Of a stretch of DNA of 40,710 nucleotides, positions 20,258-28,100 are shown one piece after another. Numbering within the stretch: position 1 is the first letter of the stretch; each line of letters opens with the position of its first letter. The notes under the pieces were generated by a model. It was not told the DNA's origin, did no database searches, and worked only from the letters and a program-made list of their open reading frames with translations. The stretch is from a virus, in UHGV virus genome UHGV-0247404; one strand, 5' to 3'. Position numbers and translations under genes: made by a program.

Positions 20258-20857
20258 ATGAAAACAAAAAAACTATTATTGCCAATGCATTTACAATTCT
20301 TTGCTGATAATCCAGATACTGGCACTGGGGGTACGGACCAACCGGCCGGAGGTCAAGAGCAAACACCGCCAGGAGATGGCGGCAAAGATAAAGGTAATGA
20401 AAAAACGTTTTCTCGTGGTGAAGTAGCAAAAATGATCGCTGCTGAAGTATCAAAAACAAAAGAAGCTTGGGAAAAAGAGCAACAAGAAAAACAAGCAGAA
20501 GCAGAAAAACTGGCAAAAATGAATGCTCAAGAAAAAGCTGAACATGAAAAGAAACAGCTAGAAGCAAAAATTGCGGAATTGGAACGTAGTCAAGCATTAG
20601 TTTCCATGTCAAAGGAAGCTTCTAAAATGCTTTCAGAAGCTAGTTTGCCGCATGACGATGATTTGCTAGGATTGATTGTTTCAGATGATGCGGAAGCCAC
20701 AAAAAAAGCTGTCGCTATTGTTACGAACTATGTATCAATGATTAAGAAAGAAAATGCTCGCCAAAAAACACCAGGTGAGGGCGGACAATTTTCAACTGAT
20801 AAAAAAGAAACCGAATCAGTTGCAGCTCTTGCAGCAAGCACACGAATTGTAAAATAG
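20258..20857 (+). CDS. scaffolding protein with N-terminal L27-like Prp cleavage motif
   Basis: Coiled-coil, Glu/Lys-rich 199-aa protein before the capsid gene; N-term MKTKKLLLPMHLQFFA|DNP. Confidence 0.65.
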   Translation: MKTKKLLLPMHLQFFADNPDTGTGGTDQPAGGQEQTPPGDGGKDKGNEKTFSRGEVAKMIAAEVSKTKEAWEKEQQEKQAEAEKLAKMNAQEKAEHEKKQLEAKIAELERSQALVSMSKEASKMLSEASLPHDDDLLGLIVSDDAEATKKAVAIVTNYVSMIKKENARQKTPGEGGQFSTDKKETESVAALAASTRIVK

Positions 20858-20869
20858 GAGGAAATATAA

Positions 20870-21802
20870 ATGAAGAAAAAACAATTAATGAAAATGGATA
20901 TTCAAATGTTTGCTCAAACATGGAATCCAGACAACGTCACAGTATTAGAGAAAAAAGATGGAACAATTCCAGACAAGTACAACACTTTAATTTTAAAAGA
21001 TGTGATGGAAAATTCTAAGTTAATGCAGTTAGCTAAATATGAAGAAATGGACAGCAAAGAAAAGAAATTCGAATACTTTGCAGAAGGTCCTGGAGCATAC
21101 TGGGTTGGTGAAGGTGATAAGATTAAAACGTCTAAACCTAAATGGTTAAACGTAACAATGACTGCGAAAAAAATCGGTGTTATTATCCCAGTTTCTCGGG
21201 AATATTTAACTTATAAGATGTCTGATTTCTTTACTCAAATGCAACCAAAAATCGCAGAAGCATTTTATAAGAAAATTGATGCGGCTACTATCCTTGATAA
21301 AGAAAATCCATTCTCTCAATCTATTGAAAAATCTGTCATTGCAGCTAGTAATGTAATTGAGGGCGACTTGACATATGACAACATTTTAGCATTAGAGGAT
21401 TTGCTTGGAGAAGGTGAATACGATCCGAATGCTTTCATTTCTAATCGTAAGAATCGTACAGTGTTACGTGAAGCAAGTAAAAAAATTGGTGACACAACTC
21501 AATTTATTTATGATCGTGTCAGCAATACTATTGATGGACTGCCTGTAGCAGATCTAAAATCTATGGATAAGGGAAACCTTTATACTGGTGATTTTGATTA
21601 CTTGCGCTATGGTATCCCATTTAACATTAATTTCAAAATTTCAGAAGAAGCTCAATTATCTACTTTAACGAATGAAGACGGTACGCCTGTCAACTTGTAC
21701 GAACAAGAATTGGTTGCTTTACGAGCTACAATGGATATTGGTTTCATGGTCATCAAAGATGAAGCATTTGCTAAGATTCAACCAAAAGCTGCGGGGGAGT
21801 AA
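20870..21802 (+). CDS. major capsid protein with N-terminal Prp cleavage motif
   Basis: 310 aa, strong SD aggagga; N-term MKKKQLMKMDIQMFA|QTW; follows scaffold. Confidence 0.7.
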   Translation: MKKKQLMKMDIQMFAQTWNPDNVTVLEKKDGTIPDKYNTLILKDVMENSKLMQLAKYEEMDSKEKKFEYFAEGPGAYWVGEGDKIKTSKPKWLNVTMTAKKIGVIIPVSREYLTYKMSDFFTQMQPKIAEAFYKKIDAATILDKENPFSQSIEKSVIAASNVIEGDLTYDNILALEDLLGEGEYDPNAFISNRKNRTVLREASKKIGDTTQFIYDRVSNTIDGLPVADLKSMDKGNLYTGDFDYLRYGIPFNINFKISEEAQLSTLTNEDGTPVNLYEQELVALRATMDIGFMVIKDEAFAKIQPKAAGE

Positions 21803-21864
21803 CTAGCCCTGTTGTCGGAAAAGTAACACCGACAACAAATGGGGCGACAATCGAACTAACTTAG
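21793..21864 (+). other. recoding cassette A: G-run slip site plus -1 frame 20-codon extension (TSPVVGKVTPTTNGATIELT) with downstream hairpin 21811-21836
   Basis: -1 frame open from 21775 through the capsid stop to TAG 21862-64; nt and peptide homology to cassette B at 23827-23889. Confidence 0.5.
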
Positions 21865-21875
21865 GTGGTGTTTAG

Positions 21876-22208
21876 ATGTCAGAGATAGCAAATGATGTAA
21901 AAAAATTATTAAATGGCAGTCTTGATGAAAAACTAGAAATCATTGAAAGACGTACAAACGATCGACTTCAAAATATATTGAATGTCACTGAGTTACCAAA
22001 AAGTTTTGATTCAGTTGTATATGAAGTCACTTTAAAACGATTTAATCGTATTGGCCAAGAAGGAATGCAATCTTATTCTCAAGAAGGTTTATCTATGGCA
22101 TTTCCAGACTCTGATTTTTCTGAATATCAAGATGAAATTGAAGAGTATAAGAACAAGGAAATAGAAGAACTTTATAAGCCTAAACATGGGAGGTTTACAT
22201 TTTCATGA
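21876..22208 (+). CDS. head-tail connector protein
   Basis: Size and position after capsid. Confidence 0.45.
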   Translation: MSEIANDVKKLLNGSLDEKLEIIERRTNDRLQNILNVTELPKSFDSVVYEVTLKRFNRIGQEGMQSYSQEGLSMAFPDSDFSEYQDEIEEYKNKEIEELYKPKHGRFTFS

Positions 22209-22540
22209 GATATTTAGATGAAATTACCTTTGTAAAAAAATCTTCAGAATCGCATTATGATCCAAATTCAGGTGAATGGATTGAAGAAGAGCCGTTTAGG
22301 AAAACTACTGATGTCAATGTAACTGATATTGGTACTGATCGTTCTGTTACTATTTTCGGAAGTATTAAAGAAGGGGCTAAGGTAATTAGGACACAGCCCC
22401 TTTTTGTTATTCCAGAATTTGATTACATTGAGTTTGAGGGTAAAACTTGGCAAATTATTACAAGTAGAGTTCCTGCATTAAGAAATAGCTTGATTGTTCA
22501 TGAGGTGATTATTGATGGCAAGAAGTCAAGTAAGAATTAA
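22205..22540 (+). CDS. head closure / head-tail joining protein
   Basis: Position; overlapping start/stop. Confidence 0.4.
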   Translation: MRYLDEITFVKKSSESHYDPNSGEWIEEEPFRKTTDVNVTDIGTDRSVTIFGSIKEGAKVIRTQPLFVIPEFDYIEFEGKTWQIITSRVPALRNSLIVHEVIIDGKKSSKN

Positions 22541-22895
22541 TGGATTAGCTGGAATTTCTAAAAAACTAAAGAGAAATGCTCAACTTGATGATGTGAAAAA
22601 AGTTGTTAGAAATAACACAGCCGAATTAACCGCCAATATGCAAGCTGAAGCCGAAAAGGTGTTAACTGGACACTGGGAAGGTAAAAAGTTTGTTAAACCT
22701 ACAGGGGCAACAAAAAGAAGTATCGTTATGAGGCTTTCGAACAATGGTTTTTCTGGGCATACAGGACCAGGAACAGAATACGCACCGTATTTAATAAACG
22801 GTACGAGATTTATGGTGAAACGTGATTTCTTTTTACCACCGCTGAAACAACAAAAAGTGAAATTTAGAACGGACTTGGAAAGGTTGATGAAATGA
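22512..22895 (+). CDS. HK97 gp10-family neck/tail-completion protein
   Basis: C-terminal [13 protein letters not shown] motif typical of the HK97 gp10 family. Confidence 0.5.
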
Positions 22896-23281
22896 TTAAA
22901 ACAAGAGATCAATCAATCTTCGATGAAGTGTATAAGAAGTGTCAATCACTGGGTTATGAAACCTACGATTATAAACCTATGAATGATGTAGGTTATCCAT
23001 TTGTCGAATTAGAAGATACTCAGACACTGCACCAAGCTAACAAAACTGATATTAAAGGTTCGGTTACATTGAATCTATCTGTATGGGGATTGGCAAAAAA
23101 ACGTAAACAAATATCGGATATGGCTTCAGCAATTTTTGCTGAGGCTCTATCTATTTCTGAAACGGAAGGTTATTATTGGTCGCTCAATATCCAATCAAGC
23201 GGTATTCGGTTAGTAGATGACATTTCGACTAACACACCATTGAAGCGGGCAATGATATCTTTAGAATTCAAAATACTATAG
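22892..23281 (+). CDS. tail terminator / neck protein
   Basis: Position immediately before major tail protein. Confidence 0.4.
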
Positions 23282-23296
23282 AGAGAAGGAATATAA

Positions 23297-23827
23297 ATGG
23301 CTAATGAAGCAAAAGTAGCGGCTAAAGGTATTGATATTATTTTACTTTTCCGTTTGTTAAAAAAATCAAAAGAGGAAGCAGCATGGAAATTAGCTTTCCA
23401 GACAGAACATGAAAATACAAAAACAAAAGATAGTGATTCTGTGGCCACTAAAGATGGTCCGATTCGCATCCCAGGATCATTGGAAATTGATTTTTCGGCA
23501 ACATCTATTTTATCAGTCGGTGATCCGTATGTTGACCAGCTAGAAGAAGCTTTAGACAATGACGATATTATTGAAATCTGGGAAATCAACAAAGCAGAAA
23601 AAGGCACAGGAGATAATGCTGACAAATACAAGGCAACCTATTACCAAGGATATGTAACATCATTTGGTAAATCACCTAATGCTGAAGACACCGTAGAAGT
23701 TTCATTAGAATTTGGTATCAATGGTAAAGGCGCAAAAGGATTTGCAACATTAACTGCTGATCAAGAAGAAGTAGTTCAATATGTCTTCAAAGATACGACT
23801 ATTGAAACAGCTGATCCGGGAAAGTAG
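23297..23827 (+). CDS. major tail protein (TP901-1/phi13-like)
   Basis: 176 aa, strong SD, located before chaperone/TMP; ends with slippery G_GGA_AAG at the stop. Confidence 0.65.
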   Translation: MANEAKVAAKGIDIILLFRLLKKSKEEAAWKLAFQTEHENTKTKDSDSVATKDGPIRIPGSLEIDFSATSILSVGDPYVDQLEEALDNDDIIEIWEINKAEKGTGDNADKYKATYYQGYVTSFGKSPNAEDTVEVSLEFGINGKGAKGFATLTADQEEVVQYVFKDTTIETADPGK

Positions 23828-23889
23828 ATAGCCCTTCTGTGGGAAGTGTAACTCCTACAGTCGATGGGGCTTCTATTGAATTAAGCTAA
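23818..23889 (+). other. recoding cassette B: canonical -1 slippery heptamer G_GGA_AAG (23818-23824) plus -1 frame 20-codon extension (DSPSVGSVTPTVDGASIELS) and hairpin 23837-23859
   Basis: -1 frame open from 23815 across the MTP stop to TAA 23887-89; homologous to cassette A. Confidence 0.6.
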
Positions 23890-23904
23890 GAAAGGAAAAT
23901 AAAT

Positions 23905-24363
23905 ATGGTGGATACTTTTAAAATTTATAAAGGCCAAACCGAAGTTGTTTCCGGCCAATCACCTTTAACTATAACAGGAATGGAACCTAACACCTCAGTG
24001 TCGGCTGGTGAGTACCAAGTAACTCGTGTTGTTAATGGGAAAGAATCAGAGCGAGTAGATATTCCAGCTTTTAAAACATTGTCTATTGCTGTAACTGGCT
24101 TAGAGTTTTCTCCTAAAACGTCCACAGCAGATGCGGGTACTGCAGGTAGCCGACAAATCACAGCAACTGTCTTGCCTGAAAATGCAACCAACAAAAAAGT
24201 AACCTATAAGATTACGCCTGAAACAGAAGGTCTTGCTGTCTCTGAAACAGGAAATATTACTTGGACAGAAGCGGTACCGGCTGGTGTTTATACTACAACA
24301 GGAACAACAGAGGATGGTAAAAAAACAGCTCAACACACCTTAACATTGAATAATCAAGCTTAA
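23905..24363 (+). CDS. Ig-like (BIG2) domain protein, in frame with the MTP -1 extension
   Basis: ITATVLPENATNKKVTYKITPE...GNITWTEAVPAGVYTTTGTTEDGKKTAQHTLTLN is a BIG2 signature; own SD aaaggaaa. Confidence 0.6.
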   Translation: MVDTFKIYKGQTEVVSGQSPLTITGMEPNTSVSAGEYQVTRVVNGKESERVDIPAFKTLSIAVTGLEFSPKTSTADAGTAGSRQITATVLPENATNKKVTYKITPETEGLAVSETGNITWTEAVPAGVYTTTGTTEDGKKTAQHTLTLNNQA

Positions 24364-24377
24364 AATATAAATTTAGA

Positions 24378-24404
24378 GGGCAGCTTGGCGGCTGTCCTTT
24401 TCTT
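24378..24404 (+). terminator. rho-independent terminator after Ig-like ORF
   Basis: gggcagc-ttggcg-gctgtcc followed by TTTTCTT. Confidence 0.45.
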
Positions 24405-24418
24405 ATGGAGGAAAAGAC

Positions 24419-24769
24419 ATGCAAATCGAAATTAAAGGAAAAAAATATAACTGTATTTTTGGAGTCAAGTTTATTCGTGAATTGGATAAGCAGCATGGGG
24501 TAGTTCGTAATGATGTGAATCTTGGGATGGGACTAACAACATTATTACCGCAGCTAGTAAGTGGAAATATCGTTGTTTTATCTGATGTACTCTATACAGC
24601 TACCATTACGGAAAAAAGTAGACCTTCTAAGGATGAAGTAGATGAGTTCGTTGAAACTGTTGATGATATTGAGGCATTATTTGATGAAACGTTGAAACAC
24701 TTAGAAGAAAGCAATGCGGGAAAGTTAACGGTCAGAAATTTCAAGAAAGCTCTGATGGAGAACAAGTAA
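24419..24769 (+). CDS. tail assembly chaperone (G-like)
   Basis: 116 aa between MTP and TMP; contains slippery G_GGA_AAG at 24718-24724. Confidence 0.65.
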   Translation: MQIEIKGKKYNCIFGVKFIRELDKQHGVVRNDVNLGMGLTTLLPQLVSGNIVVLSDVLYTATITEKSRPSKDEVDEFVETVDDIEALFDETLKHLEESNAGKLTVRNFKKALMENK

Positions 24770-25119
24770 GAGAGGAATTAAGCTCAGCTGAAGCTTACGA
24801 AAATATTCTCATTAATTGTTTTCGTTACCTAGAAATTACTGATTTAACAGAAATTGAACGAATGACTTTGTATGAATATGAAGTTAGGCTATTGGCGTTT
24901 CAGTTAAAAAGACTTGATCATGAAAGAGACCTCTATCTCCAATCTTGGCTAAATAACCAAATTAAGGCGACTAAAGGTAAAAAATCCGAACCTTATTATA
25001 AGGAATTCAATAAGTTTTTCAATTATGAAGAACGAGAGAAGCTTATTTTGGGTAAATCATTAATTGATGAAAAAGTTGATATAGGAGCAATTGATTTATT
25101 AAGAAAAGCAAATAAGTAG
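24419..25119 (+). CDS. tail assembly chaperone -1 frameshift fusion (GT-like)
   Basis: -1 frame open from 24688 and continuous with ORF 24862..25119; heptamer G_GGA_AAG sits in the window. Confidence 0.6.
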
Positions 25120-25134
25120 GAAAGGAGGAAAATA

Positions 25135-28100
25135 ATGGAATCATATTCAGTCGAAGCAATACTTACTGCCACTGATAGAACGTTTAGTAGCACGATGAGT
25201 AGCGCTGAACGTTCTATGGCTGGTGTAAACAAGCAATCTGGTGAACTAGGTGATGGATTGGATAAAAGCACCACTAAAGGGAATCAATTGGGTAAGTCAA
25301 TTCTTAGTATTGGGGCAGGCGTGGGCGCTGTAAAATTAGTATCTACGGCCGTAAATATGGTTAAGGACTCTGTTGAAGGAGCGATTAACCGTTTTGATAC
25401 GTTGAATAAGTATCCTGTAGTTATGAAGGCTCTAGGTTACTCAACAGAAGATGTTGATCGGTCCATGAATAAACTATCTGATGGGATTGATGGATTGCCA
25501 ACATCCCTCGATGAAATTGTAGCTAGTACGCAACAACTATCAATTTCAACTGGTAGCTTGAGTAAAGGGACTGACACAGCTATTGCATTAAATGATGCCT
25601 TTCTTGCTTCTGGAGCTTCAACTGCTGATGCGACTCGTGGTATGCAACAATATATTCAAATGCTCGGTAAGGGTGAAGTTGATATGCAGTCTTGGCGAAC
25701 TTTACAAGAAACAATGCCAATAGCTATGGATAAAGTTGCTAAGTCTTTCAAAGAACAAGGTGTAAACTCAGTTAACCAATTATATGATGCCTTAAAAGAA
25801 GGAGATATTACATTTAATGAGTTCAATAATCGTTTGATTGAGTTGGACAAAGGCGTAGGTGGTTTTGCGGATTTAGCCAAGAAAAACTCAAAAGGTATCA
25901 AAACCTCATGGGCAAATATTAAAACAGCCACCGTTAAAGGTGTAACTACAGTTATTAATTCATTTGATGAATTATCCAAAGCAGTGACAGGAAAAAATAT
26001 TGCCGAAAACTTAGACTCTTTAAAAAATGTAGTTAATATAACTTTTAAGGCAATTGATGCAGCGATTCAATCAACTATTCCGTTGATGAAACTATTCGGA
26101 AAAGCTATTACGTCGATAGGTACAGCCTTAACACCATTATTACCAACAATTGCCAGTTTTGCTGCCACCTTTACAGCGTTGAAAGTAATTCAGCAAGTGA
26201 CAGGCTATATAAAACAATCTGAATTGGCAATCAAAGCTTATACAACCGCAATAAGTTTATACAATGGAATATCAAAACTGGCTACGTTGTCTACCACAGC
26301 ACTCGGAAGAGCATGGATGTTAAACTTGGCTGCCGATAAAGCCAATTCTGCAGCAATAGCAATAAAAACTGGTCTTTTAGTGGCGCAAAATACAATCGTT
26401 GGTGTTTTGACGGGAACAATTAGTTTAGCTACAGTAGCTACAACTGTTTTTAGTACCGCTATGAAATTGTTGATGGGTCCTATTGGTTGGGTAACAGCTG
26501 CAATAGGAGGACTAGTAGCTGTAGGGGTAAACTTGTGGAAATGGTTAAATAAGGAAACTGAATCAACTAAGGCAGTTAAAAAAGAACAAGAAAACCTTAT
26601 GAAAACCACAGATGACTTGATTAAAAAGAATCAAGAACATACCCAATCACGAAAAGATGAAGCTATTGAATTGGATAATACTAAAGAAAAATTCCAATCT
26701 ATGATTTCTGAAATGGAAATGCTCTCTGCTAAAGAAAAATTAAGCAACAGCGAGAAAAAACGTATGGTGGAAATTGTTGAGGAATTGAACGGTAAAATGA
26801 CAGGTTTAAACTTAGTTTATGACGATCAAAAAAATATTTTATCTGAAATGCCTGGAACAATTCAACAACAAGTTGATGCCTATAATGCTTTAGATGAAGC
26901 TTCTCAAGCTCAAGAAAACATTAATCAAATGTTAAAAGAACGAAATGATAATGAAGCGAAGCTGATGGAAATCAATGCCGCTAGAGAAAAATGGAATCAG
27001 ACATTAAAAGAATCTGGCGGGAATACAAAAGAAGCTCGTGAAAATATTGAAAAGTTGGGCGAGCAAGAGCAAGTGTTGAAGGGCGTTCAACAGGAATTAA
27101 CGAATGAAATTATAAATACAGCTAATGCCCATGAACAATCAATGCAGCGTGCAAGCCAAGCTGTGGAAAATGGTGTGTTAAATCAAACAGTTTCATACAA
27201 TGCTTTAAGTGGTAAGACGAAAGAAACAATGGATGCAATGCGTTCAGAATATTCATCACTTGAAGAAAAAGTAGGGAGCGCCTTTGATGTTATCCAGCAA
27301 AAACAAGCTATTTCAGTTGATCAAATGGCTGAAAATTTACAAAAAAATCAAGAAGCTGTTAGCCAATGGAGCACTAACATTGCTGCGTTAGCACAGCGAG
27401 GGGTAGATGAAGGGCTTTTAGAGCAACTAAGGAAAATGGGTCCTGAAGGTGCTGCTCAAGCGGCAGAATTAGTAAATTCTTCAGACGAACAATTACAACG
27501 CTTGAATGATGTCTATCGTAATACTGGTGAAACTTCTATGAATGCGATGAAAGAAGGCTATCAGTTAGGTAAAAATGGTGTAAATGAGGAAATAGCAAGC
27601 TTAATTCCAACGCAAAAAGATACATTAATGACACAGATTAAGAGCACCGATTTTAATAGCGTTGGTCTAAGTGTAACCGAAAACTTTAAAGCAGGCATTG
27701 AGAACGGGCGTACAGCAGTCGAAGAAATGACCAAAGGAATTGTTCCTAAAGTCGGGGAAGACATGAAAGGGGAAGTCCAAAAAGCTGATTTCAGAGGTAT
27801 TGGTAAGTCCATTCCTCAAGGATTAGAAAAAGGTGTTGACGACGGTAAAGGAGTTCCTGTAAAAACATCTAATCAAATGATTGATGATGTTGTTTCTGGT
27901 GCCAGAAAAGGTTTAGATTCTCACTCTCCTTCTCGTGTATTTCACTCAATTGGTGAAGATGTTGATTCTGGATTATCAAACGGTATAGAACAAAACGCAA
28001 TGAATCCAGTAAGAGCAGTTGAGTCTATTGTTGATAAAATAATTTCTGCAATGGATAAATTGCCATCAGAAATGAATTCTATCGGAGCAAATGCAATTGA

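Follow-up and report, generated by a model that had tools for sequence, protein, structure and literature searches.

In the viral genome UHGV-0247404, the whole 40,710-nucleotide stretch of which is referred to here as the window, the genes for the major capsid protein and the major tail (tube) protein (MTP) are each followed in the -1 frame by a peptide of about 21 residues, and a small protein with an immunoglobulin (Ig)-like domain is encoded directly after the second of them. What these short extensions are, and how they relate to the separate Ig protein, is the question that the locus raises. Over 20800-25200 the window shares ~98% identity with EFC-1 and IME197 and 93% with phiEf11; it represents an Enterococcus faecalis siphophage with the gene order scaffold, HK97-type capsid, connector genes, MTP, 152-amino-acid (aa) Ig protein, tail assembly chaperones, and tape measure. 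The analysis indicates that the extensions, termed tags here, and the Ig protein, termed the free protein, very probably belong to an ancient split FN3-BIG2 module whose tags are translated. The tag corresponds to strands A-B of an FN3-like domain, the remainder of which begins the free protein. Docking between the two probably takes place by strand complementation in trans, to judge from the comparisons described below. The features that concern the tags are as follows, with positions counted along the window.

20870..21802, + strand: major capsid protein gene, HK97-type (PF05065 at 1.6e-31; phrog_10 major head protein)
21793..21797, + strand: five-G run (C GGG GGA G, then TAA), candidate slip site for a -1 shift at the capsid stop, read from sequence
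21793..21864, + strand: capsid tag, -1 frame, GGVTSPVVGKVTPTTNGATIELT then TAG, near-identical to the MTP tag
23297..23827, + strand: major tail (tube) protein gene, MTP (PF06199 at 7.4e-18; phrog_238)
23818..23824, + strand: slippery heptamer G_GGA_AAG directly before the TAG stop, canonical X_XXY_YYZ, read from sequence
23824..23889, + strand: MTP tag, -1 frame, VDSPSVGSVTPTVDGASIELS then TAA, corresponding to FN3 strands A-B
23891..23896, + strand: Shine-Dalgarno-like AAAGGA, for an independent start of the free protein, read from sequence

The 3' end of the MTP open reading frame (ORF) reads CCG GGA AAG TAG. In the -1 frame it continues as GGG AAA GTA GAT and onwards to give VDSPSVGSVTPTVDGASIELS (21 residues), ending with TAA at 23887-23889. 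The next 15 nucleotides (gaa agg aaa ata aat) lead to the ATG of the free protein at 23905. Since 23827 and 23905 both leave a remainder of 1 on division by 3, the shared frame of extension and Ig ORF, separated by TAA and five codons as the earlier note had described, is present, as is the Shine-Dalgarno motif that it placed in the gap. The 3' end of the capsid ORF reads GCG GGG GAG TAA. Its slip site, C GGG GGA G, is a non-canonical heptamer, yet the commonest site type in relatives, and we infer that it would operate by P-site slippage of tRNA-Gly. The gene after the capsid tag (ATG 21876) is in a different phase from that tag, and the earlier observation of the same tag on the capsid is likewise correct. 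Further tag peptide sequences are VTSPVVGKVTPTTNGATIELT and VTPTTNGATIELT, the latter the expected C-terminal tryptic peptide of the long capsid form. Synthesis of the -1 trans-frame product at the slip sites is indirectly supported, namely by purifying selection in the -1 frame and by a capsid doublet in phiEf11 virions that is described below.

The tag is conserved as a peptide of about 21 residues, whose consensus is (S/A)P-x-V-x-x-V-x-P-T-x-(D/N)-G-A-x-I-x-L. For its statistics, 44 diverse copies were placed in a gapless alignment. For the three codon positions of the tag frame, column entropy was 0.88/0.77/1.52 bits. The synonymous share of codon differences was 39% in this frame, whereas the two alternative frames gave 10% and 4%. 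Stop codons occurred in none of the 44 copies in the tag frame, and in 40 and 43 of the 44 in the other frames. Moreover, tag length was identical in 68 of 73 distinct copies. The tag is therefore not non-conserved junk; that it is a translated peptide, maintained by purifying selection in the tag frame, is strongly supported by these patterns of variation. At every locus with a homologue of the N-terminal domain of the free protein, except for the truncated contigs L033 and L041, a -1-frame tag of ~21 residues was found on the preceding structural gene.

The shared frame of tag and Ig ORF was the cue that the earlier note had considered meaningful. Here, 92 loci encoding relatives of the Ig protein were fetched, and the three frames upstream of each were read. 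Among 50 non-redundant tag/ORF pairs, the phase of the tag relative to the Ig ORF was 0, +1, and +2 in 15, 14, and 21 cases, respectively. Given this spread and the 1-in-3 prior, the phase shared in the window is coincidental, and readthrough from the tag into the Ig ORF is not a conserved feature. What is conserved instead is a short gap, with 1-18 nt from the tag stop to the start codon of the free protein, and a Shine-Dalgarno motif and ATG of its own precede the free ORF in every relative.

The free protein consists of two parts.

23905..24081, + strand: N-terminal domain, FN3-like, beginning at strand C without strands A-B (homologue starts, AlphaFold2, Pfam fn3)
24082..24363, + strand: BIG2 Ig-like domain and stop codon (PF02368, profile-PDB, Foldseek)

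All 120 homologues from a first database search start within a few residues of the FKIYKG motif (M-x-FKIYKG), and the same holds for ~70 short clusters recovered when 1.84 billion representatives were searched exhaustively. The AlphaFold2 model of the free protein (predicted local distance difference test, pLDDT, 94.9) contains a four-stranded sheet together with residues 18-30 (QSPLTITGMEPNT), which have no strand partner and include the invariant S19, P20, and I23. In terms of FN3 topology, the modelled sheet corresponds to C'-C-F-G and the unpaired stretch to strand E (SPLTITG), left unpaired because strands A and B are missing. For the same reason the free protein is not the complete two-domain Ig protein that it had been taken for. 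The second domain scored 20.1 bits against PF02368 as a single sequence, below the 22.8-bit cut-off; the family profile matched a crystallised Big_2 domain in the PDB at 8.6e-18, as well as the C-terminal Ig domains of T5 pb6 and lambda gpV, and Foldseek gave a Big_2 match with a root-mean-square deviation of 1.9 A over 89 residues. Matches to BIG2 and tandem-Ig structures dominated when the model was compared with the PDB by Foldseek, and no solved structure covering the N-terminal domain was found by either profile or Foldseek searches of the PDB.

It is also observed that the free protein matches phrog_341 over its full length (1.4e-52; residues 1-151 aligned to positions 1-150 of the 154-position profile), a family widely labelled "major tail protein" or "phage tail protein"; RefSeq shows two adjacent "major tail proteins". 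This label is apparently a misnomer and a systematic mis-annotation, since it is the PF06199 gene upstream that encodes the actual tube protein. Separately, very long proteins of 750-3335 aa (P0123, P0125, P0126, and others) contain 4-15 tandem repeats that match residues 24-55 of the N-terminal domain; these repeats are presumably FN3 arrays of surface proteins.

Tag and N-terminal domain together form what elsewhere is a single domain. An exhaustive representative search with the N-terminal domain as query recovered natural unsplit homologues (P0195, P0172, P0169, P0154, and P0124), and the tags are collinear with strands A-B in P0195, P0172, P0169, and P0124. When joined, the MTP tag and the free protein of the window (residues 5-171) align as one segment with P0195 575-739 at 38% identity (E=2e-28), the sole insertion at the junction being a 3-residue loop, and the capsid tag with the N-terminal domain aligns with residues 1-78 of P0172 (E=3e-19). 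The extension had been compared previously with the first strand of a BIG2 domain; it represents instead A-B, the first two strands of the FN3-like domain with which the module begins. The same conclusion is suggested by tags reached through a +1 shift, which resemble textbook FN3 starts (NKPGNVKASATDTTVKLEWD, EKPVNVTAEATTDAVIVSWQ) and end just past the hallmark Trp, the corresponding free proteins beginning with M(G/A)YNVY. The N-terminal domain of P0034 scored 29.2 bits alone against Pfam fn3 (positions 32-83 of 84) and 36.0 bits when the capsid tag was added (2-83). For the L096 protein, the score of 24.2 bits alone (41-80) increased to 27.8 bits with the capsid tag and 30.3 bits with the MTP tag (2/3-80). 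The tag and N-terminal domain of the window itself gave no match to Pfam fn3 (PF00041). That its N-terminal domain is called FN3-like follows from its homologues in the +1-shift class and among the unsplit relatives, not from its own Pfam score. A search of a 5.8-billion-protein database with a chimera of tag and N-terminal domain returned 7 close matches and no fusion.

The presence of the tag is associated strictly with that of the free gene. Among 77 MTP-homologous loci with enough flanking sequence, 32 carried both (29 by pattern scan, plus 3 in-frame tags of phiEf11 type that the pattern missed), 45 carried neither, and none was discordant. In MTPs that are 81-84% identical to that of the window but untagged, the gene ends and is followed by a terminator or hairpin and the chaperone gene. 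Furthermore, at 15 loci matching BIG2 only (L036-L040, L042-L051; e.g. L036 5990-6282), the capsid frameshifts straight into a full BIG2 domain. These capsids are 77% identical to that of the window and use the same GCG GGG GAG TAA site, their BIG2 is 64-72% identical to that of the free protein, and the phages concerned lack both an MTP tag and a free Ig gene. The alternation of a BIG2 in cis and a tag at the same site is as expected if the tag serves to acquire BIG2.

The carriers of the tag are varied. A pattern scan gave 78 sequences with tags, namely 77 loci and the window. In 57 of these, two tags were present, one after a capsid-sized ORF and the other after an MTP-sized ORF, and essentially no tags were found elsewhere. 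Tag-bearing capsids span four unrelated Pfam families (PF05065, PF03864 in phiEf11, PF25209, and PF20036), and tag-bearing MTPs two families (phrog_238 and phrog_820). Most tags in relatives are preceded by NCG GGG GAG TAA/TAG; GGGGGAG TAA is the commonest -1 slip site, with G_GGA_AAG, A_AAA_AAA, and C_CCA_AAA also in use. In the metagenomic relatives L096 and L097, the tags are reached by a +1 shift at CCC_UGA or CCC_UAA. The free-protein gene lies after the MTP in Enterococcus, where the capsid tag is 2 kb away from it, and after the capsid in Bacillaceae, always 1-18 nt past a tag stop. In L025, L067, L090, and other Bacillaceae prophages, for instance, the free FN3-BIG2 gene adjoins the capsid, and a second tag is located on the MTP (phrog_820) ~2.4 kb downstream. 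In MTPs of phiEf11 type (L002 3275-3868, ORF15; L130 4440-4600), an extra A (CCA GAA AAA GTA) brings the tag in frame. This is not a sequencing error, since independent IMG/VR contigs show the same, and from the reading frame every tube subunit of such phages would be tagged.

Several further arrangements were noted. Mosaic phages (L012, L104, L109, L110, L112, and L123) combine a phiEf11-type PF03864 capsid and A_AAA_AAA tag with the MTP, tag, and free protein of the window type, which implies that capsid modules are swapped freely with the tag retained. In the Staphylococcus Triavirus phi2958PVL (L101 2230-2310, 4395-4470), both capsid and MTP end in TTA CCC AGC TAA, with the stop one codon past CCC; the tags AKPQKVNVTAKAKSAVISAE and ANPQNVEVAVNSKSATVSAE lie in the +1 frame, and the free protein, gp43B, follows the MTP. 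In the Staphylococcus phage Kayvirus 812 (L102 2337-3504), the "head cement protein" gp151 ends in frame with the tag SAPKNVQVTPKEDGADVSAE, and the next gene, gp152, encodes a truncated FN3 and BIG2 with a tag-like C-terminus of its own, EAPADVTVEPGENSADITV. P0018 (residues 238-258) also has a C-terminal tag, DPPVVESITSTTDGASINLE. Proteins such as 812 gp152 and P0018 could chain head-to-tail into fibres.

On this basis, the following process is proposed. A fraction of ribosomes would shift into the -1 frame at the two slip sites, giving a subset of capsid and tail-tube subunits with the tag at an exposed C-terminus. The free protein, translated from its own ribosome-binding site, would then bind the tags on head and tail. 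The tag would be inserted as the missing A-B hairpin, so that strand B pairs with the conserved, unpaired strand E (SPLTITG). In this manner a single gene would lead to display of BIG2 on both head and tail, the copy number being set by the efficiency of frameshifting. As has been suggested for Ig-like domains elsewhere in phages, the displayed BIG2 would probably allow weak adhesion to carbohydrates or to the cell surface. On balance we favour, with some reserve, the view that many Firmicute phages possess a natural "tag/catcher" system in which an FN3 A-B hairpin of ~20 residues is captured by a free FN3 lacking those strands. With the same modest lean, its range is taken to cover Enterococcus phages like phiEf11 and EFC-1, the Staphylococcus Triavirus PVL phages, and therapeutic Kayvirus phages, the tag being carried on any structural protein. 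The earlier note had already proposed that the tag might recruit the free Ig protein by strand addition. Selection on the tag, its unrelated carriers, its co-occurrence with the free gene, and the unsplit modules speak strongly for that proposal, and the result of one-chain docking does not.

Indeed, several results weigh against capture of the tag by the free protein. In the AlphaFold2 model of P0018, which bears its own C-terminal tag, the tag remains coil (pLDDT 59-66) and is not docked on the N-terminal domain; the geometry of this protein may forbid docking within the chain, and the outcome still provides no support. For the window class, the concatenated profile found nothing significant among PDB sequences (best E 0.42) and reached a probability of 2.7% against five human FN3 domains in hhalign, its divergence being too great for a direct match to FN3. 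Capsid and MTP tags from the same phage are scarcely more similar (0.62) than tags from different phages (0.60, p=0.034), a sign of weak co-adaptation that also fits a near-universal tag tolerating capsid swapping. Concerted evolution of the two tags within one phage was likewise considered, and gave a weak signal only. Regarding phiEf11, no extension peptides were found by mass spectrometry, and its always-tagged MTP runs at 28-30 kDa and not as a complex with the 16-kDa protein stable in sodium dodecyl sulphate (PMC5221750). In the same study, 6 of 11 bands were analysed and ORF16 was not reported (PMC5221750). On the supporting side, its virions show two capsid bands of 38-39 and 41-43 kDa, which the authors explained by a -1 extension of 21 aa (PMC5221750).

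Other explanations of the tag should be compared with this one. Conceivably, the tag performs its own task in the capsid or tail, such as assembly or stability in the manner of the long forms of Lactobacillus phage A2 proteins, or is conserved mainly as an RNA stimulator of frameshifting, and the free protein uses other surfaces to bind the virion or another target. The confident fold of the free protein without a tag and the lack of same-chain docking are in keeping with this idea, as are two stable hairpins that the tag codons are predicted to form after the slip sites.

21806..21845, + strand: predicted hairpin 3' of the capsid slip site (77-nt segment 21800-21876, minimum free energy -21.3 kcal/mol, z -2.6)
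23825..23875, + strand: predicted hairpin 3' of the MTP slip site (-22.3 kcal/mol, z -2.7)

Pairing of these hairpins reaches 67% in the register of the window and 34-48% when the register is slid; shuffled columns, however, yield 66.4%, neither hairpin shows covariation across the 44 tags, and no consensus structure was obtained with RNAalifold. Conserved Pro and Gly codons account for the potential to pair, and with covariation lacking, the hairpins are possible, unproven stimulators. A conserved RNA stimulator is not supported, because covariation is absent across relatives. Variation in the tag follows codon periodicity rather than base pairing, and the tag is retained where frameshifting is not needed, as in the phiEf11-type MTP and the cement protein of phage 812. 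Neither a separate task nor an RNA role fits well with the strict co-occurrence of tag and free gene, or with the contiguous FN3 that tag and N-terminal domain form in unsplit proteins, and such an origin of the conservation is rather unlikely.

It is highly improbable that the tag is a decaying, functionless remnant of a fused MTP-Ig or capsid-Ig extension left by a recent split or pseudogenisation, of which the recently split MTP-Ig fusion suggested in the earlier note would be one form. Direct fusion of BIG2 at the same capsid site in close relatives does imply that fused and unfused states interconvert. On the other hand, the split is common to phages or prophages of Enterococcus, Staphylococcus, Brochothrix, and Bacillaceae (among the hosts, Oceanobacillus, Virgibacillus, and Siminovitchia) and occurs with both -1 and +1 shifts. 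For this reason the split FN3-BIG2 module is, as far as its distribution among sequences indicates, old and widespread and not recent. Decay is also hard to reconcile with a tag that stays intact while identity of the free protein drops to about 41%, with its fixed length, absence of stops, and synonymous-biased variation, and with the precise start at strand C in all homologues. Finally, a second recoding event (readthrough of TAA, hopping, or reinitiation without release) might produce a covalent link in cis between the MTP tag and the Ig ORF, an arrangement made conceivable by the in-phase frames of the window five codons apart and by the invariably short gap in relatives. Such joining is barely credible in view of the nearly even spread of phases among the 50 non-redundant relatives, the separation of the Ig gene from the capsid tag in Enterococcus (2 kb) and from the MTP tag in Bacillaceae (2.4 kb), and the Shine-Dalgarno motif and ATG that each free ORF possesses. 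Capture of the tag in trans by the free protein is therefore retained as the preferred explanation.

Two neighbouring elements of the window complete the description. The heptamer G_GGA_AAG of the MTP occurs again within the tail-assembly-chaperone gene, at 24718-24724 (ORFs 24419..24769 and 24862..25119), where an open -1 frame extends from 24700 or earlier into ORF 24862..25119, a classic chaperone frameshift of the G/GT type. Its independent use at this position supports the heptamer as functional in this host. After the free-protein gene, the following is predicted.

24376..24406, + strand: terminator-like hairpin (24376-24399) and U-rich tract (-16.5 kcal/mol, z -2.9)

The terminator proposed earlier at this place is thus supported by the predicted hairpin and U-rich tract, and the consensus terminator scan does not list the hairpin at 24376-24399.

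If the proposed process is correct, it would explain the very short frameshift extensions on capsid and tail, which the authors of phiEf11 termed speculative, as well as the routine mistake of calling the small Ig protein another "major tail protein". A new principle of attachment for decoration proteins, completion of a split domain, would be added too, which fits the free exchange of capsid modules in these phages. In practical terms, a small display system for therapeutic phages of Enterococcus and Staphylococcus would be ready-made, in which a 21-aa tag recruits any cargo fused to the catcher. Phages of phiEf11 type, with an in-frame tag on every MTP, are the best material for cryo-electron microscopy or binding work. 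A search of the literature for a split FN3 or a trans-docking mechanism found no description of either, and the cryo-electron microscopy paper on Brochothrix NF5 reports no decoration.

Several known systems share parts of this arrangement. In the Bacillus phage SPP1, a programmed frameshift extends the MTP with an FN3 domain (gp17.1*), which is dispensable and thought to be adhesive (PMC8718954). There as here, the MTP gene is recoded at its 3' end, which places an FN3-type module on some tube subunits. SPP1, however, adds a whole FN3 in cis, whereas only strands A-B are added here, the remainder and BIG2 being encoded by a separate gene and the capsid being tagged too. In the Listeria phage PSA, the 3' ends of both capsid and tail genes are recoded, and its CCC_UGA/UAA +1 signal is shared by L096 and L097. 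Its extensions, a SAP-like tail of 47 aa on Cps and an acidic tail of 24 aa on Tsh, are unrelated to each other and to the tag, and no free FN3-BIG2 gene was found in PSA, which was rejected as an example of the same system on account of the unrelated extensions despite the same +1 signal. Lactobacillus phage A2 reportedly uses -1 frameshifts at the 3' ends of both its major capsid and major tail genes to produce long protein forms, and the concept of frameshift-added Ig-like domains on phage virions is said to go back to Fraser et al. 2006. Frameshift fusions of Ig domains in cis, including those of L036-L040 and L042-L051, have the same BIG2 payload, the same carriers (capsid and MTP), and the same slip site. 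They differ in being covalent translational fusions, whereas attachment here is proposed to be non-covalent and mediated by a split FN3 adaptor.

T4 Hoc and T5 pb10 resemble the free protein as separately encoded proteins with Ig-like domains that decorate the assembled virion. In their case a complete capsid-binding domain reads the capsid lattice, whereas an incomplete domain completed by a peptide of the carrier is proposed here. If so, the binding unit would be independent of the fold of the carrier and usable on head and tail alike. In chaperone-usher pili, donor-strand complementation likewise completes an Ig-like fold short of an edge strand with a strand of another polypeptide. What is absent from pilins is a single C-terminal strand, whereas two N-terminal strands are missing here and the donor would arise by ribosomal frameshifting. 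Engineered split pairs of the SpyTag/SpyCatcher type may be regarded as similar in their tag/catcher logic, with the difference that no isopeptide chemistry is indicated in the present case and complementation itself is proposed. Taken together, frameshift-added Ig or FN3 domains, dual recoding of capsid and tail genes, and free Ig decorators are all known, and the new element is the proposed split-domain adaptor.

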